A stretch of 62,819 nt of DNA, filler included. It is 6 parts of 6 records of this genome, joined end to end, with 100 filler letters (N's around TTAATTAATTAA, not from the genome) between each part and the next. Parts side by side here need not be neighbours in the genome. Positions count along the whole stretch, not along the records: positions 5,770 to 11,317 come from DRR378314_742; 5 more parts are not named here. One strand, given 5' to 3'. Position numbers and translations under genes: made by a program. This document shows positions 2,210-41,725 of the stretch, piece after piece. A model generated the notes under the pieces. It worked only from the letters and a program-made list of their open reading frames with translations, had not been told where the DNA came from and made no database searches. How positions within the stretch are numbered: position 1 is the stretch's first letter; every line of letters starts with the position of its first letter.

Positions 2210-5200
2210 ATGTCGGGGCGGTTCATCGTGTGTGCTACCATCCTCCTGGTCTGCAGCAGCGTTGCACAGGCTTCCAAGGCGGCGGGCGATGGCAACACGC
2301 CCGTGAACGAGGAAAGAAATGCTGGGTTACGTAGCACCGAGTGGCAGAATGATATGATGTCTTTTTCTTTTGAGCAAGATGATACAGTATATCGAGGTGG
2401 CTTGCTCGCGCAAGGGAGTAAGGACAGCACTTTCGAATCTCCGAAAGCAACGCCAGACCGGCAGAACGCCAGGCGAGTGGCACATACAGCACACGCCGCT
2501 GAGTCTGACGCTCTGCGTTTTCTGCTAGAGAATGACATCACTATACCGCTGGTAGACGGAACGAGTCTGCAGATTCGAGCATCCAGCGACGCGATCATGT
2601 CGAGTAAAGATCACCTGCCGGTGGTTGTGTACGTGGTCCTTCATATGGATGCCAAGACGTTGTCCCTGTTGCAAAGCAGTGCACTGTCGCCGTCTCCGAT
2701 CGTTGCCGTGCCGAGTGCTGGCCTGTTGAACGGGCCTGACGCGCGTCGCAAGTGGGAAGAATGGGTTTCAACTGTGCTACAACCTCTGCAAGGAAATTTT
2801 CATTCCAACGACACAGATACTACAGAAACTGATCAGGGGGAAGAAATGAGCCTCAAGTTCGCTTTGTCAGAGTTCCCGGACCTCGACAAAGTCCTGCGGA
2901 TTGCCGAGCGAGCGGGACGACGCGTCAAGACTGTTCTCCGCTCGAACTCCTCAGAACCATTTGCCTTGTGCTCGGACGAACAGCGAAGAATACGATATGC
3001 CGAGTACTCTGCCAGCAAGGTAGCAAACCAGGATCTTGCTTTGGTTTCTGTCGCTTGTACGAAGGATGCTGTTCGCTTCGAGAACGAAGTGCGGAGCATT
3101 TCAGCTGCAGCAGGTGCGAGGTGTACGCGAGCGGCAGCCCACGCGGTAGCTGCGGCTATGGCCGCGCCGTGCCGCCCACATGCACAGCAGCGCCGTGAGA
3201 AGGCACACTGAAGCACTCACGCCGCAGCCGCGAGAGATATAAACATCACAACGAACCAATCTTATGCACTGTGGTTAATCTTAGGTCACACTCAAGATAA
3301 AGCGATAGTACGAGTGCATGCGAAGACTGGTCGACAATGTGTCGTACGCAAATCTCCCACAAAGCTCAGCTGCACCTCGTCGTACAGTGGTTCCCGGGCG
3401 CATTGCTGTTCGATGGACCGACCTTGGAACAGCTTGCGGTGGACAAGATGGGAACTAGCTCCAAGGGATGGGTAAATGATAAGAAGTACAACATATAGAG
3501 TAGTAACGCTCGATCTCGTTGTACAGTGGCGAGAATGAGAGTAGGTGTGCGTTTGTTGCTCCCTTGGCGACCACCGCGCGCCCCGTGTCACGCTTGCGCT
3601 GGCTCGTCGAATCATCGAGGATGCTCGAGGACTTCTCACAGTGTCGCTTTATGCACGTTTTTCGTGCACGTGCGCACTCACGTTCTTTTGGCAGCCTACC
3701 CTATTGCGGTACTCGTGGACGTGAGTCAAGACGGATGCGATGTTCAGCGCATGACGGTCGCTGCAGCCGCAGCCGGCGCAGCGGCGGTGTTTGCCGGCCC
3801 GGACGGCCCGTCGCCGTACTGCTCCACACAGCCGCAGCCGCGAACGCCACAAGACGATCAAGCATGCCCCCAGCTGGACATAACCTTCTGTGGACTCAAA
3901 AGCAAGTCATTTGCGGACCTATCTGCATATGTGCAAGGTACAAGTGAAGGGAGAAGTGATCGTGCTGGCGCTGCGTTCGGACCGGACGTGCTCGTACGCG
4001 TGTCCGATGCGACGGTGGGCCGCGGCTTCGCAATCGACACCTCCGGTCGCATCCGATCGCTCGGTGGCGGAGCGTTGGTTATCCCTTCCGCAATCGCCGA
4101 ACAACTGCAGTACGAACACAAGGTACAAGAAATAGTGGCAGACCTTGTTCAAAACGGCGCAGAGCGAGTCGATGTGGAGGTCAAGCCTGGAAGCCAGCAA
4201 GCCCTGATCGACCGCTTCGTATGGCTAACAATGGAGTGGCGTTTGGACGCCTCTATCCCGCAACAGCTGTTCGCTCATCTGGAGCTGCTGTGCAAAGACC
4301 ACCGGTCGGAGTACTGCGGGCTGTGGGACTTTGTCCTGTCGCTCATGGTGTGCCCTGGATCAGCCGATGTACAGAATAGCTCAGCAGATGAGTACGCCAA
4401 GGTCAACTGCAGTGAAATAGCTAGATGGGTGACTGCGTACTCGCGGGAAGGAGTTTGGCTGACAGATATTTCGCCGATGACCGCAGTGCTGCTCGACGCT
4501 GCCAGACGAAGCCACGGCACGATAACGCTGGTTCTTCGTACGGATGGATCCAGTGCGTACGAGCCCTCGCTCTTTTTCCTCAAGAAGCACGGTTCTGACG
4601 AACGTGCACTTGTCCCATACAGAGCGACGCTAGTGTTTTCGGGCGGCAATCTGGAAGGAGATGTAGGCACAAGGCCTGCTGTACGGGATGTGGAGCTTGC
4701 AACCTCCACGCGCACAGCTGCTCTGGTGTCACTGGTCACCGGACACGGATGGGAGTGGGACACGCACAACTGCGCGGAATTTTGCAGGCTCACTCACACG
4801 TGGAGTGCGGCAGTCGCTACAAACACCCCTGCCAGCGACGCAAGAGGTGGTGCTTTGTTTCCGCTCGAGACTATCGCAGACGCTTACCCTTCTTCCTTTC
4901 TGAACTGGCATCTCGTCACGCCCGAGGCTGAAGACACGCTGGGGTGTCTCGCGCAGGTATCGCAGGGCGTGCCAGCAAACCAGTTCGGCGCATGGGTTGG
5001 TGGACGTGCAAACTGGTGCCCCGGTCTGGACGTGAAGCCAACAGTCTGGGATATTCCGCTAGAGTCGCTGCCGTGCCTTGCTGGTCCACAGCACACGGGG
5101 CAAAGTATTGAGCTGGGAACTGCCGCCAGCTGTGCGAAAGAGCTCCGCAGCACCGCCGCATATGGCCATGACTCACTGCGCCGCCTAGTGCTCGCGTATC

Positions 5201-5526
5201 GTGTAGGGCGAGATTTTGTTCCCTACGTACCCTCACAGGGACAGAACGAACCTACCGGAGGGTTTCCACCGCAGATTCGTCTTACCACGTACCTCGTCGA
5301 ATACACCGACGAGAACGAGGCTAGAAAAAGCCTCTCTCTTTCGTCGGTGATACCAGAGGCGCTGGCCTCTCATTCGCCGGCAACAGATCCCAAGATCTGG
5401 ACTCTGTTTCTAGCGTATATTGCAGTCGTTGTGCCTATCGCACTCTTCATTTTCATTAAATATCTTCGCCGGGAGCACGCAAAGCAAGACTCTAACTCAG
5501 CTAATTCCAGCTCAGACATTGCGTAG
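2210..5526 (+). CDS. Peptide-N-glycosidase F family protein with signal peptide, PA-like segment and C-terminal TM anchor (multi-exon)
   Basis: Exon 2210-3113 starts with signal peptide MSGRFIVCATILLVCSSVAQA and ends at a phase-1 GTGCGAG donor. The last exon 3695-5526 follows a phase-1 acceptor (CTCAC...TTTTGGCAG). Motifs CGLWD, EIARWVTAY, WLTDISP, TGHG..CAEFC, NQFGAW..GRANWCPG. TM segment IWTLFLAYIAVVVPIALFIFI then KYLRR. Internal exons in 3114-3694 are unresolved, and joining the two exons is inference. Confidence 0.7.
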
Positions 5527-5669: not shown

Positions 5670-5769
5670 NNNNNNNNNNNNNNNNNNNNNNNNNNNNNNN
5701 NNNNNNNNNNNNNTTAATTAATTAANNNNNNNNNNNNNNNNNNNNNNNNNNNNNNNNNNNNNNNNNNNN
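5670..5769. other. Artificial contig spacer N44-TTAATTAATTAA-N44
   Basis: Runs of N around a 12-mer with stops in all six frames. The same spacer occurs five times. Confidence 0.99.
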
Positions 5770-5875
5770 TGTTGCTTGCACTCGCCGAGTCCGCCTGCGA
5801 GAGGGAGTGCGGCGCTTGCGCGAGGTCGTAACGGCACGCGCGGGCGGACAAAGCACCACGAGCGCGCCAACGCAC

Positions 5876-8800
5876 CAGTCTTTGCCACACGCTCGGAGCC
5901 GGCCAGATCGATGAGATGCATCTTGCCGTACGTCTTCACGCCGGTCGTCACATTCTCTTCGACAACATACACAGACATGATGCAGTGGGAGCGGCTGGAG
6001 TGCTCATGGACGTTTGTGATGCCTTCCGCGCGATGGCGCATTCCCATAGTCACGTACTCGGTGACCTGATCGAGCGACTTCACCTCGACCATGCGCAGAC
6101 CAGGCACGTACACACCACCCGCCTTGCGATCTCTGCACCGCCAGCGGCGGAGGGATATCGCAACGAAGCGGGAAGCAGAGGCATGGAAACACGCATGTCA
6201 CACGCGAGACCGGGTCGAGTGCAGAGGTCGAGTCGGTGGAGGAGGCGCAACGCACGTTACTCGCACCAACACCGCGCCTGACGAACGAGCCATAGATGGA
6301 GGAACGCCTCGACAACAAGCCAAGCACGCACGAATCTCCTGCAACGGTGCGATTGGCCTTCTCGGTTCCCCAAAGCGAGACTACCGCGGCTCGGGTACGA
6401 CTAGAGCAGCGGCTACAGACCGCCCGGATAACGGTCAGCAGTCAGAGCACTTGCTGTACCGAGCGCAAAAACGCACCTGTGCTTCACCTGGAGATCCTTT
6501 CCCTTCTCCCGGCCCTCGGCGAGCAGGTCGCGGATCTGCTCGTTGTAGATCTCCAGCAGGGACATCTGGATGGAGTGGACATACTCGTCCGGGCGCTCCT
6601 CCTTGATAATGCGGAACAGCTCCTTGAGCGCGCGGAAGTTCACACCGGGATCGTCCGGCGGTCCCTCCATCTGGACAGGCGCACAGACGCAGCGGCCCAG
6701 ACAAGGAAAAGCGCGCAGATGAGCGGCGGCGTTCGCGCGCGCTGACACCGCAGCGCTCATACGCCACGCAGGGAGGGAGGGGGCGGTGTCCGCGTGGGGA
6801 AAGAAACGCCACAACCCCTAGCATGCAGCGCGGCGCCGGCGCGCACCGTCACACCCCTACCAGCCCAAGCGCCGAGCACTTCACGGCGGCGCTTCACAAA
6901 TGCGCTCTTGCGCCATGGGTGGGCGCGGCTACGGCGCGCGTTTGCGTACCGTGTATGTCTTCCCACTTCCGGTCTGGCCGTACGCGAACACGCACACGTT
7001 GTAGCCGTCGAGCAGCGAGATGACGAGCGACCGTGTCTCACGGAACACGTCCACCTGCTCCGCGTTCGGCCCGAACACGTTGTCGTACTGCGGAGAAGGA
7101 GCGCAGGACAGCAAGCGCGCGCGGGCGCGACAACGATGGAGAACAACAGCGCGGCGATCAGAACGGCAATGCAGTGTGTGCTGGCGCGAGAGCAGTACGT
7201 GCGCTTCGTTTCCACAACAGACGCGAACGACAACGCGCCATCGGCCACCCACACGCGCAACTTGCACACGAGTACTTCCTTGCAACTCGCGACACCTCGC
7301 AGATTCGCGGACCGCGCAGCGCATAGACGACGAGGTACCGCACGCCTCCGCCATGCAGCCATTACGCACGCAGCTCCATCGTACAGGAGCCCGAGTGACA
7401 GCGCGAGCAAGCGCAACGTACACGGAAGTGCTTCTCGCGCTGCTTCTCGTCGTACAAGACAATCAGACCCTCGTCTTCAAATACGTCAAGACAAACTTCG
7501 GCGTCAACCGCAATTTCGTCCTGTGTGAGCGGACGGACGCGGCAGAACACACGGATGTTCCCGCGCATTTCTACGAGCTCGTTGTGGAGGCGGCGGCGCT
7601 CCTGCTGCTCCTTGCGGAAACGGTAATTCGCGAGATCGACCTGCTCATGCTGCTGCATAATGAGCTCGTGCACTTGCCCGTGCAGCGTTTTCACCGCATC
7701 CGGGATCACGCGCGTAAACTCGCGCGCATCATGCACCACCGAGTCGAAGAACGCACGCGCATCGCGCATGTCCTTGACGAGCGCGTCGTACTTTCGCCCC
7801 GCGCGGCGCTTGATCTCGCGCGTCGCCAGCGACTCGACGTCGGCCATCACCGGAACCTCGAAGGGCGATCCCGCAATGTCCTCGCCGCCGACCGAGATCC
7901 CAACCTGCAGCTTCCCGGACTCGCGCGCGTGGAAAATGACCGAGTACGTGCCGTCGCGGTTGTCTTCGAGCGTAAAGTCCGCGCTAATGCTGACGTGGAA
8001 CGAGTCGCCGCCGCAGTCGCGCCGGTTCCCGAACCGGTCGCGCGCCTCGATGAGGAACGACGCCGGATGCAGCGCGACCGTCCCGCTGGACAGTCCCGGT
8101 CCGTACGCCGTGCACTCCGCCGGGCACACGCTTGCGGGGCGCGCGCGCAGTGAGTACGGCGACTGCGCAACGTTCTCTCCGGCGACCGTGGCTGAGAGTA
8201 CGTATTCGCCGGCGACTTTGAGCGAGAAGATCGCCGTGTACGTGCCGTCGCGGTTGTCCAGCACGCGCGCCGCAACTTCCGCCGGCCCGGACAGCGTGCA
8301 CTGCACGTCCTCGCCGCCGCAGTCGCGCGCGTTGCCGAAGCTGTCGCGCAACGTGATTGTGAGCGCCTCCTCTTGGCCGCACTCGCACAGCGTGAGCCCC
8401 TTGCCCACAATCGAGCTCGTGCGCGCGGAAGTCGCCCCTGCCGCGATGTACACGCGCAGCGGGCACCCAGGGAGAACTTCGTCGCCAAGGTACACGTTCA
8501 CAGAGTACGCGCCGCTCACTGTGGGTGCGAACGACGCGCTGTACGAGCCGTCGCCGTGGTCGGACACGTCCGCGACAACGTCGGCAGGGCCCTGGACCGT
8601 GGCGTGGAAGCCGTCGCCGCCGTCCCGCTGCGCGTTGCCGAAGCGGTCGCGCGCGCGGATCGTGAGCGCAGTCAGCTCGCCGACCACAAGCGCCGCCGAG
8701 CTGGCGCGCTCCGGCAGCAGCAGCTCGCAGGCGCGCGCGTTCGACTTGTTCGGCACGACGGTGACGGGGAACGTGCGGAGAACGCCGTTTACCAGGAGCG

Positions 8801-11317
8801 AGAGGCGGTACCGGCCGGCCAGGTGCGACGTGTACGCGACCGTGAACGACCCGTCGCCGTTGTCGGCAACCTCGGCGTCCACCGCCGCCGTGCCTTCGAG
8901 ACGAGCTGTGACAACATCGCCACCAGTCTTCACATCGTTGCCGAAGGCGTCGGTCGCCTGGATCGCAACGCGCGCAATCTCGCCCGCGGTGCACTGCGAC
9001 AGGCCGCTGCCGGAAATGCGCGACCGGTGCGCGTCCGCCGGCCCTGCAACGCACGAAAAGCGCAGCGGGCACCCGGACGCCTCGGCGCCGTCGACTTGGA
9101 TGACAAGCTGGTATTCCCCGGCGACGCGCGGACGGCACCGCACATCGTACGTCCCGGACTCGGCCGGCACAACCTCGACACTCACGTCGGCTGGGCCGGT
9201 GCAGTGCGCCTGCACGAGCGCGGTCTCGCCGAACACGGGATTGCAGTGCCGGTCGCGCAGCTGCACAGAGCAGCGCATTTGCCGCCCAGCCCGCACGGCG
9301 ACCTCCGAAACTTTGGCGCCCAGAGCGGTGGGCATCAACACGTTGCACGACGGGCCGTGCACAGTGCCCGCGACAACGCGTAGCTCCGCCGGCCCGAGCG
9401 GGACGAGTTTGCCGAGAATCCTCGTCATCACGCTGTACACGCCGACAACGGTGGCGGTGATGCGCACTGTGGCGACGCCGCCTTCGCGATACGCAACGCG
9501 CGGCACCACCGCAGCCGGTCCGTCGAGCTGCACGTCCACAGTACCGTCGTCCAGAGGCACGCGATTACCATACGCATCACGCGCCAGAACTGAAAACTCT
9601 GTGCTCTGGCCAGCACGGCACTGCAGAGCCGATGTTGCCGGCGCTGTCAGGCAGCTGGTCGGACAGAGATCTGCGGCGGCGACAGCCAGATGGAACGGAG
9701 ACCCGGGCACGCTGCTCCCGCCGACAAGCACGCTAATGCGATACTCCCCGGCAGTCCGCAGCGGGCACGGAACTGAGACATCGCCAACACGCTCCGTCTC
9801 AATTGTACGGAGTGCGATGGCTGACGATGAGGCGATGTCGGGCGCGCCGTCTGCGCTGCCGTCGCCGCTCCCCGCGTCGGAGTCCGCCAGCACTGCGGTG
9901 ATGCTGACCGCACCCTCGGGTGCGCGCACCGCGTTCCCATACTGGTCGCGCAGGTGCACGTGGAACGAGAACGCCTCGTCTGCATGCGCCGTCCCGCGCT
10001 CAGCCTTGCCGCCACCAGCCGCAGCGCCGCTTGGAAGAACCAGGCGGCTTGCCTGCGACACTGGCGATGCGGGTACGACTTTGACCGCAAACGGCGATCC
10101 TGGCACAGGCTTTCCGCGTACAAACACACCAAGCTTGTACGAGCCCGCCTTCTCGGGTGCACACTCGAAGAGCACCAAACCTTGTTCGCCACCTCCGAGT
10201 GAGCTCGATGGTCCGACGCGGGCACACGGCACCGAAGTAGGGCCCTCCAGCACAGCCGTGACATCGCTGGGCCCAACATGCGACACATTGCCAGTGGCGT
10301 CGCATAGATCCAGCGAAAAATGGACACGAGCGCCCGCTTCGTACTGGCCGTCGGCACGGAGGCCGTGCACGCGCGCGCGATCACCAGGCTCGACAGCAAG
10401 CGCGGGCTGAACAATGGCCACAGCCGTGCGGCCGCCGCCAATCGCAGATCCATTCCAGGTGGCAGCAACACGATTGGCACCCACGCGGGTGGCGGTGAGT
10501 GAGCAGCGCCACACGCCAGCGCGCACGACATCTACATTCTCAGCGCGCACATCCTGCGGTCCATCCTGGACGGAGAGTCGCAAATGCTTCTGCAAGCTTT
10601 CAGCATCGACCGAGGCTGCGTTGCCGCACGAGTCCCGGAGGCTAACAAGCACCGGGAGAACCTCGCCGCAGCGAGTCTGAAGCGCGCGCGTGCCAACGCG
10701 CCTCTCGATCGACACCCCAGAAGCCGCAGCATCGGGCACACCGGCGACCACCTCGAGGGCAATAGGGAACGCGGCAATCGGGAGGCCGCCCAGCGTCCCC
10801 GACATACTGTACGGGCCCGCCTGCGACAGGCTGCCGCGCACAACCAACACGCGCTCGTCGCCGTCGACATCACACGCCAGCGGCATGGCGGCCGCCGATT
10901 GGAAGCTCCCGCCTGATCCACCCAGCGCACGGCGAGCAATGATCTCACCAGCGCCTGGAATTTCACTCGTCGCATTGCCCCAGCTATCAAAGAGCGCAAT
11001 GCGCAGCGTGAACCAGTCTCCCGCACGCACTGCACGCCGCAGCGCATCTTTGACAGTGCACTGTCGCGGGTCTGCCGGTCCAGGCAACACTTCGAGCTTC
11101 ACTGCTGACGTCGAGGCGCTGCCATTGACTTTCAGGACACTGCGATACAAGCCCGCGCGCGACGGTGCGACTGTACCCGCGCGCAGCGACGGCCCCGCGG
11201 GCACCAGCGGAACTTCAACGGAAGCACCAGCGGAATTCTCCAACGCTTCAAAGCGAAGTTCGACCGCATCGGCCTCCTCACCGCCGCTTGCCTCAACAGG
11301 ATTCCCGTGCCGGTCGC
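5876..11317 (-). CDS. Kinesin-14 (C-terminal motor) with at least 11 N-terminal filamin/ABP280-type Ig repeats; partial at both ends
   Basis: Exons 11317-7422, 7087-6950, 6670-6477 and 6132-5876 join in phase through GT-AG introns. Neck [24 protein letters not shown]-loop [36 protein letters not shown]. The upstream frame is open to the contig edge and carries 11 DxxGN-type repeat motifs plus DNxDGTY and G(S/C)PF motifs. Confidence 0.92.
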
Positions 11318-11417
11318 NNNNNNNNNNNNNNNNNNNNNNNNNNNNNNNNNNNNNNNNNNNNTTAATTAATTAANNNNNNNNNNNNNNNNNNNNNNNNNNN
11401 NNNNNNNNNNNNNNNNN
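11318..11417. other. Artificial contig spacer
   Basis: N44-TTAATTAATTAA-N44. Confidence 0.99.
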
Positions 11418-22838: not shown

Positions 22839-22938
22839 NNNNNNNNNNNNNNNNNNNNNNNNNNNNNNNNNNNNNNNNNNNNTTAATTAATTAANNNNNN
22901 NNNNNNNNNNNNNNNNNNNNNNNNNNNNNNNNNNNNNN
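22839..22938. other. Artificial contig spacer
   Basis: N44-TTAATTAATTAA-N44. Confidence 0.99.
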
Positions 22939-23165: not shown

Positions 23166-24516
23166 ATGATTGCGTCGACACCGTGTGCGTCATGCGGGGC
23201 GACGTCGTCCAAGTACCGTTGTCCAGCGTGCGCGACGTGCTCGTGCAGTCTCGCCTGCGTGCGCGCGCACAAGGAGGCGGCGCAGTGCACAGGTGCGTGC
23301 GGCAGCACCGCGGCGTACCTCGCTCACCGCGCAGCATCGCATCCCCGCACTCGCTGTGGCACCAGCGTGCGTATGTCAAGTGCTTGCATCTGCGAAGCAC
23401 GCGGTGAGAAGTGGCGGCGGGTCCCGCGCGCACGCTGGGGCCCGCCCGCGGCGTCGCGCGCACTCGCGTGCGGCTCCTCACGCAACGCGCGCCGGCTGCG
23501 ATGCGCGCCGTGCAGGCAAGGCGCCGCGCTCGACGTGGACACCCATCAAAGATTTCAACGATGACATCCTCCGCAAAGGTGCGCATGTATAGTACGTCTC
23601 ATTGTACGCTCGTGTATTGCTGCTGATATCATAGATGGAGGTGCAGGAAGGGCGTACGCGGGTCTTCCAGCGCCGTGAACGTACTCGCGTGCGGTGCGCG
23701 TGCGCCGCCGCAGACCTCCGGTTCCTCGAGGAAGTGAGCGCGCGCTGCGACGCGGCCGAGCGCGCGCTACCGGCACCGCGGGAAACACGGCGGCGATTCC
23801 GCGCCATCAAGCAGGTGGAACGGGCGTGTAGCGCGCGAAAGATCGTGTGGCGCACGGTTGCGGCCGGGATGAAGCAGCGGCGCGAGAACGCGACGCGCTA
23901 CCGCGCCGAGGATGACACGCTCGTGTGGACGGTGCGGTGGCGCTTCGGCGCGCCGCGCGTGCCCGACGCGTTTGTTGTGCTCGACCGCGCGGTAGCGGAG
24001 ACTACGACGCTGCAGGAGGCGCTCGATAGACACTTGGTGCAGCACACCAAGCGCGACGCGAAATGGTACGCTCGGTAGCGGGCGGGCGCTCGCTCTCTCT
24101 CTCTCCCTCTCCTCTCCCGGCTCGGCGCCTCACCGGCGCGCTGTGCGCGTGTGCGCGCGCGCTCCGCATCCAGGCACTTCCTCCTCCCGCGCGCATCGAA
24201 CCGGACAACGCTGCGGCTCTTCTTGCACGCGACATTCCAGCAGGTAAGTGGAATCGGGGCGCGCGCCGCTGCTGCGGGGCGGCCAAGCGCATGCACCGCG
24301 CCCTCACCATCTGTCATGTATTATACGCTCCGTACGCGTGCGGCGCACGCACAGCACGCATCGTCGCGCTTCGTCCCGCTCGACGAGCGCGCGACGCTGC
24401 GCGAGGCGCTGCAGGGCAAGACTGTCGTGGAGTTCCCGGAGATCCTCGTTCTGCTCCCGCACGAGGCAGCGGAGCTCGTTGCGCAGCACAACGCGGACGC
24501 GGACCCGCACTCATGA
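23166..24516 (+). CDS. BCD1: Box C/D snoRNA protein 1 (BCD1/ZNHIT6), 5 exons
   Basis: Exons 23166-23292, 23516-23578, 23714-24065, 24174-24243 and 24355-24516 join in phase. zf-HIT C..C.....KYRCP.C...CSL.C...HK....C.G, D.RFLEE, GM..RREN.T......WTV.W.F, L.E.L.GKT.VEFP.I.V. The start may lie further upstream. Confidence 0.88.
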
Positions 24517-27500
24517 GAGAATCCCATTGGAGAAGTTTTGAAATCTATCATATGCAGTTGTTCTAAAATTATTCAGTGATGAATGTATGAGCGAGAGCAC
24601 ATGATCCGCGACTTTGTCGTCAGTTAGGCTGACGCAGAAGCGCGCGACGAGCGCGTCGAGCAGCGACGGGCCGCCTTCAAAGCACGGGAACGACGAGCCC
24701 TCCATCGACATGGAAACCAGCTGAACGATGCGCTCGTGGTGTTTCCGGAGCGCAAGGAACCCGTGAATCATCAGCGACTGCATGCCCCACGAACAGAGTG
24801 CACACGCACGCACATGCACACGCGCGTACATACTTTCCATATGAGGTTGGGCAGCCCGCGCGCGATGGGAGCCGCCGCGACGCGGTGCGCGCATACGCGA
24901 GAGTGCGAGCACGCGGCGATGGCGCACGCACCGCACCGCCGCGACGGTACCCCAACAGCGCGGCGGTGCGCAATAGCGACGGTGCACGGCAGCGGCGGTA
25001 CCCCAACAGCGCGGCGGTGCGCAACAAAGACGCAAAGGAACACCAGCACGAAGCGCACCGCACCCGCCACAACGTACCACAAAGCGCGTAAAGTGCGGAC
25101 TATCAACCCCGTCCAGCAGCGCAACAAAGTCCTCGGAGAGCTTGAAAGGAGCGCTCTCGAAATTCATATTGAAGCCGGGCGAATTGCTGAGCATGAAGCC
25201 GTAGTCGATGTGGATCACATGACCGATCCGATCCAGCAGGATGTTCCCGTTGTGGCGATCCTTCACCTGAATGATGTAGCAGAACAAGGAGTATCCAGCC
25301 AGGGAATCGATGAAGTTTCTCCGCGCCTTTTCAAACGATGGCGTTTCTGGCGGACCGTACGCGGCCTCGAAAAATTGGCGCAGCGTTGCGCGCTCCGGTG
25401 GCGCATTCTTCTTCAGCGCGTGAAGCGAAACAGCGTCGGTGATCACCTCCATCAGGCCTCCCGTCCCCGTCACAGCAACGATATCGATCGGTTTCACCCA
25501 CAGGGGGAGACCTTCAGCAGCAAATATATCATGAAACTGCCGCAGTAGCTGATTCGCGAGCTGTTCTTGCCGTATGCCGTCACCGGATTTCACAATCATG
25601 GGTACGATGTCCCAGTGCGCGACGGAGCGCAGCGGCGAGGACTTGCGCATGAGCTCGCGCCGATCGGCAAGCGATAGCCCAAACGCTTCATCAAGCATCT
25701 CGCGGCCGGATGCGGAGCAGAAGTCATCGCTCTCCGCCGCCACTGCAACACGATCGTCCGTCGCGGCGGGCGGCACCACCCCTGCTGCTGCCGCAGCGGA
25801 GGACGATGCTGCGCCGTCGCTCTCCGATCCGCGCTCGTCGCCCTGCAGCGCCGTTGACGCGGCCATCTCCGCCTCGGCCCACGCAACGGCGCCGTTTTCA
25901 GAGCCGGAGCCATCGGAGAAGAACCGCCGCACTTCGATCACAATCATGTCCCCTTCACACGCCTCACGCATCGTCTCCGCGGCACCGCGAAGCGTACTAT
26001 CGCCTGCGAGTAGCGAGATGCCGTTCACGCGGATCACGTAGTCTCCCGGCCGGATCGTTCCCTCGCGGTCGGCGGGGGTGTTCTCAATCACCTGCCGCAC
26101 TTCGATCCCAAAGGGCGTGATCACATGCCGGAGAGCTAGCCCGATACTGTCCTCCTCCTGCGCAATGGGCATGGTAACGGTGAGAACCTTGCTGGGCCCG
26201 CTGAAACCTGCCACGTGCGCTCCGGCGGGCGGGAGGGAGAGGAGCGATGGCCGATCGCACGTGCCTTCGCCGTCTGCGACTTCCGCGTAGAGAATGAAAG
26301 GCGCACGGTCTCGCGACTGGAGGATCGAGGTACATTCAAAGGGGATGCGCATGACATGCCGTACTGTATCGGAGCCGGAGCACATGGGGAGGTACACTTT
26401 CATGTTTGGCAGGCGCTTGTTGAGATCGTCGAGGAACTTGCTCAGCGCCGGTGCACGCTCCGCGCGGGGCAGTTTCCGGAGCCCTTCACCATGCTCCACG
26501 AGCGACGCAATAAACCGCTCTTCTTCCGTCACGTACTTGGCAAGCTCGTGCCGCACATGTGTTACCGCAAGGGCATCAAGAGTCGCCTTGGGAAGGTTCT
26601 CGTTCCCTTGCTGCAGCGTCTCGTGCAGCGAAGTCGCACTCACGCTCGCGACAGACGCCGCATCGGGTATCGACAGCGACGACCGCCCGTTCACAAGCGC
26701 TTTTTCACAGTCTTCCAGCAATGAACTCACGCGTATATATCGCGGCGAAGTCGAGAGATATCCCTGCTCTTTGATTTCATCCAACATGGCCGTCAGCTGC
26801 CAAATTACTTTGAGGCCGAAATGAATGGAGCGCATCGACAGGTCCTGCACCCCAGCACCAAGCGTACGCGGATCGATGAAACGGCGATAGACGTGCCGGT
26901 ACAGCGGCGCGTGCGTGTCCTGCGCGCCTGCGATGCAGCGGTACCCGCGGTATCCCGGACGAACTCGGTGCGGGCCGCGCGTTCGCACGCACTGCGCCAT
27001 GCGCTGGATGGCGTACAGCAGCTGCATCGGAGTGGCCGAAGCTGCAGCACACACACACGTGCCCAGTGCGCCGCACGGAACGGTCACGCAGCACTTGTAC
27101 GGAGTGTGCGTGCGCTCGGTGACCTGCACACCATCGACCCACGCCACCCGGGCGCGCGCAACCACACCACACTGCAACTTGGCGCGACAAAACGCACCTC
27201 GAGCAAAAGGTGAAGTGGCGGCTTCTCCTTCGCCACTGCCGATGCAACGAGGTTGCACAGCTGCGGCAGGTAGAACTCGATCTTCGACGGGTCCATGCGA
27301 TACAGCTGATTGCAAATATACGCCTGAAGATGGGGCGATAGCACAGGCGGTGCACGCGCGAAGAGACGAGTCCTTTCAACGCAGACGCCAAGGCAGAGAC
27401 CGAGGCTCGGCGGTGCACGCGGGAGCCATAGCACGCGAGGGCTCTCACTGCGTGACTGAGGAGCGCATTGGTCGTGCAAAGCCTGCTGCACTTACTCTCG

Positions 27501-29066: not shown

Positions 29067-29166
29067 NNNNNNNNNNNNNNNNNNNNNNNNNNNNNNNNNN
29101 NNNNNNNNNNTTAATTAATTAANNNNNNNNNNNNNNNNNNNNNNNNNNNNNNNNNNNNNNNNNNNN
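29067..29166. other. Artificial contig spacer
   Basis: N44-TTAATTAATTAA-N44. Confidence 0.99.
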
Positions 29167-41625: not shown

Positions 41626-41725
41626 NNNNNNNNNNNNNNNNNNNNNNNNNNNNNNNNNNNNNNNNNNNNTTAATTAATTAANNNNNNNNNNNNNNNNNNN
41701 NNNNNNNNNNNNNNNNNNNNNNNNN
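41626..41725. other. Artificial contig spacer
   Basis: N44-TTAATTAATTAA-N44. Confidence 0.99.

Follow-up and report, generated by a model that had tools for sequence, protein, structure and literature searches.

A very probable filamin-rod kinesin-14 on a GC-rich eukaryotic contig and its relatives in distant eukaryotes

The window analysed here, a stretch of DNA of 62,819 bases, is composed of six unrelated contigs with five N44-TTAATTAATTAA-N44 spacers between them. Its second contig codes on the minus strand for a protein in which a rod of tandem filamin-type immunoglobulin (Ig) repeats leads through a helical stalk and a neck into a kinesin motor domain. The contig is the middle and carboxyl-terminal part of a nuclear, intron-containing eukaryotic gene. 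Its product is very probably a filamin-rod kinesin-14, belonging to a clade that is provisionally defined by an Ig rod followed directly by a stalk of about 95 residues and a neck, and by monophyletic motors; the window protein fits this definition. The reading that we favour, with a probability of roughly 0.6, is that of a long-reach, minus-end-directed kinesin-14 with a filamin Ig rod, in the KIFC2/KIFC3-like part of the family. The gene is truncated on both sides, at 11317 toward the amino terminus and at 5770 inside intron 4, and what is missing from the contig is the amino terminus together with roughly the last third of the motor (profile positions 242-327).

The tandem filamin/ABP280-type repeats of the window protein belong to the same Ig repeat family as those of filamins. 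The Pfam Filamin model (PF00630) matches the 1298-residue translation of exon 1 with an E value of 6.4e-96, eight stretches passing on their own, and a hidden Markov model (HMM) derived from the repeats of the window itself detects 11 filamin repeats over residues 1-1160. The motif D-x-x-G/C-N occurs 11 times in exon 1 at a spacing of 101-123 residues. All 11 motifs listed in the first-pass annotation, which was made from the DNA letters, are present and its count of 11 filamin-like repeats holds. For the final 240 residues of exon 1 an AlphaFold2 model, computed with a 15-sequence alignment, has a mean predicted local distance difference test score (pLDDT) of 80.3 and features an Ig sandwich followed by two long helices. 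In a Foldseek search the last repeat matches the Dictyostelium filamin rod (1wlh/1qfh) with a root-mean-square deviation of 0.9-1.4 Å and 31-33% identity, besides many human filamin repeats. The expectation that the repeats would score as filamin or Ig folds is thus borne out both by profile and by structure. The last four repeats have a period of 101-102 codons (303-306 nucleotides (nt) in the DNA), and their identity at the DNA level, measured over short motif-coding stretches, is only 65-88%, which identifies them as old diverged repeats and not as an assembly stutter.

The minus-strand frame has no stop codon between the contig end (11317) and 7362 and takes the protein from rod to stalk to neck without interruption, in agreement with the earlier statement that the fusion is independent of the splice model. 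The kinesin profile PF00225 then runs on across each junction of exons 2-4, every one of these exons scoring above the 29.3-bit cut-off. With contiguous profile positions 45-241 that include the P-loop, switch I and switch II, the window motor is a member of the kinesin superfamily. The three further exons had been described as in-phase and as giving the P-loop, switch I and switch II. All three do match the kinesin profile, but exon 3 ends in phase 2, so that the exons are not all in phase, and the motifs lie in exons 2 and 4 while exon 3 carries none of them. The best solved match of exon 4 is KIFC3 (5wde), followed by a kinesin-1 chain.

Between rod and motor, AlphaFold2 predicts two helices (block pLDDT 78-92), at residues 102-145 and 147-195 of the modelled 240, and the second stops at the neck's G-N, just ahead of the first motor strand. 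A Pro near the middle of the stalk and an E-R-R-R-L-x-N run before the neck are conserved in all 15 aligned family sequences, and PF16796 also matches the window protein. The proposal of a kinesin-14-type neck and motor placed behind a filamin rod is supported by this arrangement. A two-copy homodimer prediction with the last Ig repeat, stalk and neck scored 0.06 in a run made without an alignment, a result that counts neither for nor against pairing.

A chimeric assembly or a read-through of two adjacent genes could mimic such a fusion, the more readily as the contig is short, belongs to a mixed assembly and is cut within a repeat-coding motif. This origin is extremely improbable. The public run X1, which is RNA by guess only and may derive from the same sample as the window assembly, so that it is possibly not independent, contains 76% of the sampled words of the kinesin contig. 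One separately assembled X1 contig of 5216 nt joins 7422 to 7087, 6950 to 6670 and 6477 to 6132 and spans 7422-11317 unbroken, including the repeat-to-neck junction at 7500-8000 where the first-pass annotation had called for spanning reads. X1 depth is zero in both bins that are wholly intronic. Since the X1 contig connects the exons and runs uninterrupted through rod, stalk and neck, the fusion is not an artefact of the assembly or of the splice model. If X1 is RNA the introns are spliced, and if it is DNA it comes from an intron-less copy; rod, stalk, neck and motor are on one molecule either way. The single open frame across the junction, the occurrence of the same order and stalk in at least eight proteins of other organisms, and repeats that are too diverged at the DNA level to collapse argue likewise against a chimera.

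The X1 contig differs from the window at four positions (7755, 7842, 7863 and 7875) clustered within 121 nt where the last Ig repeat gives way to the stalk. All four are synonymous third-position changes, probably reflecting two alleles or strains of a gene under selection. Past 5875 the X1 contig continues for 730 nt into sequence without counterpart in the window; the first 30 letters of this extension, in frame from exon 4, read KTGSAGQRLEEA and fit the family consensus after switch II. A fifth exon considered at 5770-5794 was rejected: the X1 contig departs from the window at 5875, so this exon is wrong and intron 4 runs off the contig. At the other side the X1 contig ends at 11317 too, and its last 30 letters are common to two other X1 contigs, which points to a branch of the assembly graph inside the repeat-coding motif.

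Proteins with the same architecture are found in other organisms. A query of 159 residues covering stalk and neck, compared with a library of 1.84 billion proteins (E cut-off 0.001), yielded 1164 matches, eight of them at 1e-10 or below. Filamin repeats stand directly before the stalk in 9 among the best 150 of these 1164 matches, and the filamin-bearing proteins are the top full-length matches to the stalk query. Pfam recognises both Filamin and Kinesin in P0137, P0142, P0135, P0136, P0290, P0293, P0292 and P0144, and a word-index search added two more fusion fragments (P0067 and P0076). The best solved match of P0144 is again KIFC3 5wde, then KCBP. At least six named species (a malawimonad, a glaucophyte and four trebouxiophyte algae) have this domain order: Gefionella okellyi (EP00698_P019273, here P0291, 5058 residues, and a second paralogue, P016092, here P0142, 4208 residues), Cyanophora paradoxa (EP00741_P025102, here P0137, 3627 residues), Trebouxia sp. 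C0004 (KAL0032084.1), [Myrmecia] bisecta (KAK9829410.1, here P0293), Elliptochloris bilobata (KAK9845317.1) and Coccomyxa elongata (CAL8470626.1). They are named "hypothetical protein" or "Kinesin motor domain-containing protein" in the databases. The architecture is already present, unnamed, in public sequence collections, and the window gene is therefore one more member and not a first sighting.

The long relatives carry 17-43 filamin repeats according to the HMM built from the window's repeats. No stretch of more than 60 residues between the first repeat and the stalk is left unmatched in them, except for residues 404-664 of one Trebouxia model, a helical region that looks like a fusion with an upstream gene in the gene model. 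The Gefionella paralogue P0142 has 36 filamin repeats, the stalk and a conserved P-loop; its SSRSH motif is lost and DLAGSE reads DAADPE, and judging from these substitutions it may be a motor-dead tether. The environmental contig L001 (1-7500; 42% GC) codes for at least 19 filamin repeats, a stalk and a kinesin motor across several frames, as expected with introns. It is open at the contig start, the amino terminus not being reached, and by its predicted product it represents a further, low-GC lineage of the filamin-rod kinesin family. Among the 80 loci kept in a metagenome scan with the family alignment only L001 matches an Ig repeat together with the stalk (query residues 2-221). Almost all the others begin only within stalk or neck and resemble ordinary kinesin-14 necks. 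A metagenome scan with the whole exon-1 protein gave 140 pattern matches, none of them confirmed, a word-index search with the stalk region alone returned just 9 generic kinesin-14s, and the ESM Atlas search with the 240-residue fragment had no usable match.

The motors of these proteins form a single lineage. The tree (IQ-TREE, LG+C20+F+G4) was computed from 35 motor rows comprising the spliced window fragment, eight other filamin-bearing proteins, P0144, 19 other kinesin-14-like proteins and six outgroup sequences. P0136, P0067, P0283, P0284, P0129, P0289, P0141 and P0309 were excluded for having fewer than 250 aligned residues; P0294 (Klp8) is also outside the tree, and the named references are few and drawn from the search matches. 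All 10 filamin-bearing rows are on one branch with support 97/98. This branch is nested in a group (95/91) with KIFC3 and several algal and plant kinesin-14s, and is apart from the Kar3/klpA group, from the KCBP-type row, and from the CENP-E, KIN-12 and KIF13B rows. The motor phylogeny recommended by the first-pass annotation thus assigns the window to the kinesin-14s, in a group that includes KIFC3. The motor nearest to the window is that of Gefionella P0291 (P019273) with 54% identity, the order within the clade being unresolved in the tree. The very long branch of Gefionella P0142 (3.04) and its odd composition render its placement less sure. Occurrence of the clade in a malawimonad, a glaucophyte and green algae implies gene transfer or else an old origin followed by many losses.

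The nature of the amino-terminal tip, which lies off the contig in the window, is indicated by the relatives. Filamin repeats are best known from actin cross-linkers, and with the window's own amino terminus missing it had been suggested that a CH-domain head, like that of filamin or of plant KCH, would make the protein an actin-microtubule cross-linker. However, PF00307 (CH) is found in none of the five long relatives scanned with Pfam (P0137, P0142, P0290, P0293 and P0292) and does not figure in the precomputed domain list of P0291, and the first Ig repeat of the long relatives begins 4-96 residues into the protein or follows a low-complexity basic region. The cross-linker idea is left without support by the absence of a CH domain from these proteins, and we regard it as very improbable. 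The heads of five relatives are instead short and basic (isoelectric point (pI) 9.9-12) whereas their rods are acidic (pI 5.1-5.8). The motif S-x-I-P-K/R is present in the first 60 residues of three of these five, against 1 of 293 other proteins compared; in the rest of the chain, which runs to thousands of residues, none of the five has more than one further copy. The heads that carry it are those of Gefionella P0291 (twice), [Myrmecia] P0293 and the Trebouxia model P0412. S-x-I-P-K/R is the consensus of the EB1-binding motif and defines a candidate EB1 site in these heads. In EB1-dependent plus-end trackers a motif of the form S/T-x-I/L-P stands in a region that is basic, disordered and rich in Ser and Pro. 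In the kinesin-14 Klp2, two tail motifs of the SxIP type reportedly bind Mal3, a homologue of EB1, and bring the motor onto plus ends (PMC3510020), and an EB1-kinesin-14 complex has been reported from yeast (PMC7545359). The Ser/Pro-rich carboxyl-terminal tail of Cyanophora P0137 holds one match, SGLPR, with a second S-x-L-P beside it.

In the favoured reading two chains would pair through stalk and neck and take non-processive steps toward microtubule minus ends with the neck helix as lever, by analogy with Ncd, Kar3 and KIFC1/3. On this analogy it is likely that the protein is an active, dimeric, minus-end-directed motor. The anatomy of the Ig rod suggests a long and flexible, possibly extensible spacer. 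A filamin repeat measures about 3-4 nm, and a rod of 30-40 repeats would then span roughly 100-150 nm in full-length relatives. Such a rod would keep the motor far from the target of the tip and would expose many Ig faces for docking partners. The far tip, as judged from the relatives, would be a short basic peptide, often with an S-x-I-P-K/R sequence of the EB1-binding kind. A tip of this type could therefore allow the motor to couple growing plus ends, or another microtubule, to the lattice along which it pulls toward the minus end. The design would be that of Ncd and Klp2 (basic tip, spacer, carboxyl-terminal motor), their coiled coil being replaced by an Ig rod. That the tip works via EB1 or microtubule binding is a tentative proposal, with the odds somewhat against it. 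More doubtful still is the complete picture of an old, patchily kept subfamily (malawimonads, glaucophytes, green algae and at least one further lineage) that would combine an Ig rod of more than 100 nm with an EB1-binding SxIP tip and whose motor would bridge the lattice of one microtubule to the growing plus end of another over distances beyond those of any known kinesin. Bridging of this kind, if true, could organise flagellar-root or cortical arrays, for example.

Several observations weigh against a long-reach motor with an EB1-binding tip. The predicted stalk is broken once at the conserved Pro and could be a hairpin in place of one continuous coiled coil. The amino termini of Gefionella P0142 and Cyanophora P0137, two of the five, are without an SxIP motif, and as Trebouxia and [Myrmecia] are related algae the motif is backed by two independent lineages only. 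Gene models are also liable to errors at their amino termini: in one Trebouxia model an unrelated helical region has been fused on, and the start of the Elliptochloris model seems to lie within the first repeat. The carboxyl-terminal position of the motor is found in P0137, P0142, P0290, P0292 and P0293, and the window contig ends inside the motor; this position and the tip are accordingly attributed to the window gene through its relatives. In switch I of the window (5985-6008, minus strand) a His replaces the Asn that is found three residues before SSRSH in the 33 other rows with the motif, and the X1 contig is identical to the window there. The loss of SSRSH and DLAGSE in Gefionella P0142 implies that members of the family need not all be active motors.

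The last two features would suit a static tether, in which the motor serves as a nucleotide-insensitive microtubule anchor and the whole protein as a passive long linker. We consider this quite unlikely for the window protein: its P-loop, SSRSH, DLAGSE and neck are intact, the four differences between window and X1 are all synonymous, and the other motors of the family are canonical. Rather less unlikely, and compatible with the long-reach motor, is a role as cargo or membrane adaptor. The rod would provide multivalent docking sites for peptide tails by strand addition, and the motor would carry cargo such as organelles, vesicles or cortical complexes to minus ends. Consistent with it, the motor groups with KIFC3, the rod is the only large tail part in the relatives, and among the Foldseek matches of the last repeat are filamin repeats whose structures were solved with peptides of integrin, GPIb-alpha and migfilin (2brq, 2bp3 and 4p3w). 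Yet 17-43 repeats are far above the need for docking, and basic heads with S-x-I-P-K/R suggest a specific function of the tip; docking as the principal role is therefore an unlikely alternative.

The coordinates of the kinesin gene and of the spacers are given in Table 1. The six contigs range in GC content from 0.37 to 0.69 and are of mixed origin. Bacterial-looking genes (copper P-type ATPase, RecG, YdbH and Wzi) are on some of them and a eukaryotic-looking PI3/PI4-kinase gene with a PDZ domain is on another; the contigs beside 5770-11317 are therefore uninformative on the kinesin gene. A contig with 55-57% GC bears an open frame of 666 residues (3526-5526, plus strand) that weakly matches the C-terminal domain of peptide-N-glycosidase F (E 1.6e-11) and is hydrophobic over a stretch close to its carboxyl terminus. 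The kinase is coded by an open frame of 934 residues (24511-27315, minus strand) with PDZ and PI3/PI4-kinase domains. The contig at 41726-62819 (about 40% GC) has YdbH-like, Wzi-like and response-regulator HD-domain genes and is bacterial-looking and unrelated to the kinesin contig.

Table 1. Positions in the window of the filamin-rod kinesin gene, of its protein regions and of the spacers between contigs.
Feature	Position	Strand	Description	Evidence
Kinesin contig	5770..11317		5548 nt, eukaryotic, second of six	GC 0.60-0.69, spacers on both sides
Exon 1	7422..11317	-	1298 codons, frame from 11315; rod, stalk, neck, first motor strands	Donor GTACGT after 7422
Filamin rod	7836..11317	-	11 filamin/ABP280-type Ig repeats, first partial	PF00630, own HMM, motif list
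Helical stalk	7557..7838	-	About 94 residues	AlphaFold2 helices (predicted), family-conserved consensus
Neck motif	7530..7562	-	G, N, V, R, P invariant	Family alignment
Intron 1	7088..7421	-	334 nt	GT..AG; absent from X1 contig
Exon 2	6950..7087	-	46 codons; P-loop GQTGSGKT at 6956-6979	PF00225 profile 45-91, E 5.1e-18
Intron 2	6671..6949	-	279 nt	GT..AG; absent from X1 contig
Exon 3	6477..6670	-	64 codons + 2 bases, ends in phase 2	PF00225 profile 92-154, E 7.8e-13
Intron 3	6133..6476	-	344 nt	GT..AG; absent from X1 contig
Exon 4	5876..6132	-	Switch I SSRSH 5985-5999, switch II DLAGSE 5892-5909	PF00225 profile 158-241, E 2.1e-21
Intron 4 (start only)	5770..5875	-	Next exon beyond contig	Donor GTGCGT
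Spacers	5670-5769, 11318-11417, 22839-22938, 29067-29166, 41626-41725			N runs

The tail of a kinesin decides what its motor does. The catalogue of kinesin-14 tails includes, to our knowledge, basic microtubule-binding, CH and MyTH4-FERM types and no Ig rod. A clade conserved across distant eukaryotes, its members carrying 17-43 filamin repeats, would add a new type to it. In line with the earlier remark that no characterised filamin-rod kinesin is known, literature searches, whose coverage stopped at supplements and subscription journals, found no paper on one, and the word "filamin" is absent from the main text of Wickstead et al. 2010, although supplementary tables of such kinesin surveys could list these proteins. 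The filamin-rod kinesin-14 is thus a tail type undescribed in the literature found, though present in databases. The window itself is a modest addition, a fragment of one more member from a GC-rich eukaryote in a mixed assembly. The clade would be a natural test case for the effect of spacer length and elasticity on a non-processive motor and bears on the number of kinesin-14 paralogues in early eukaryotes. The family, whose function is inferred, is a good target for motor biophysics and for the study of kinesin evolution.

Compared with known systems, the window protein is closest in its motor to the animal kinesin-14B proteins KIFC3 and KIFC2, with which it shares the best solved motor match (5wde), a supported tree group and a neck before the motor. 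Minus-end-directed transport of organelles, vesicles or cortical complexes is described for KIFC2 and KIFC3. The tail of KIFC3 is a coiled coil without Ig repeats, and the filamin-rod clade is a branch separate from it. The kinesin-14A proteins Ncd, Klp2 and Kar3-Cik1 resemble the relatives in having a basic tip, a long spacer and a carboxyl-terminal minus-end motor, but they belong to another kinesin-14 branch and their spacer is a coiled coil and not an Ig rod. Filamins (FLNa/b/c and Dictyostelium ABP-120) are built from Ig repeats that Pfam and fold alike place in the same family, many of them in tandem forming a rod; they differ in possessing a CH head and a dimerising last repeat, whereas the filamin-rod relatives have no CH head and their rod ends in a stalk and a kinesin motor. 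The window protein is not classed here as a filamin. Plant KCH (CH) and KCBP (MyTH4-FERM) are also kinesin-14s with a tail module other than a coiled coil, but the module is a different one, and the KCBP-type row of the tree (Diphasiastrum, MyTH4/FERM) is in a different supported branch from the filamin-rod clade. The DHC4-alpha dyneins, whose tails reportedly feature Kelch, IPT and filamin-type Ig domains (PMC5100056), are likewise microtubule motors with Ig-type tail domains. According to that paper they have a single filamin-type domain per unit among Kelch motifs, whereas the rod of the filamin-rod kinesins has dozens. The nearest counterparts are the database entries of the same architecture, in which a rod, a stalk of about 95 residues, and a neck with motor succeed one another within one clade, and from which the window protein differs in being a fragment and in the His of its switch I.

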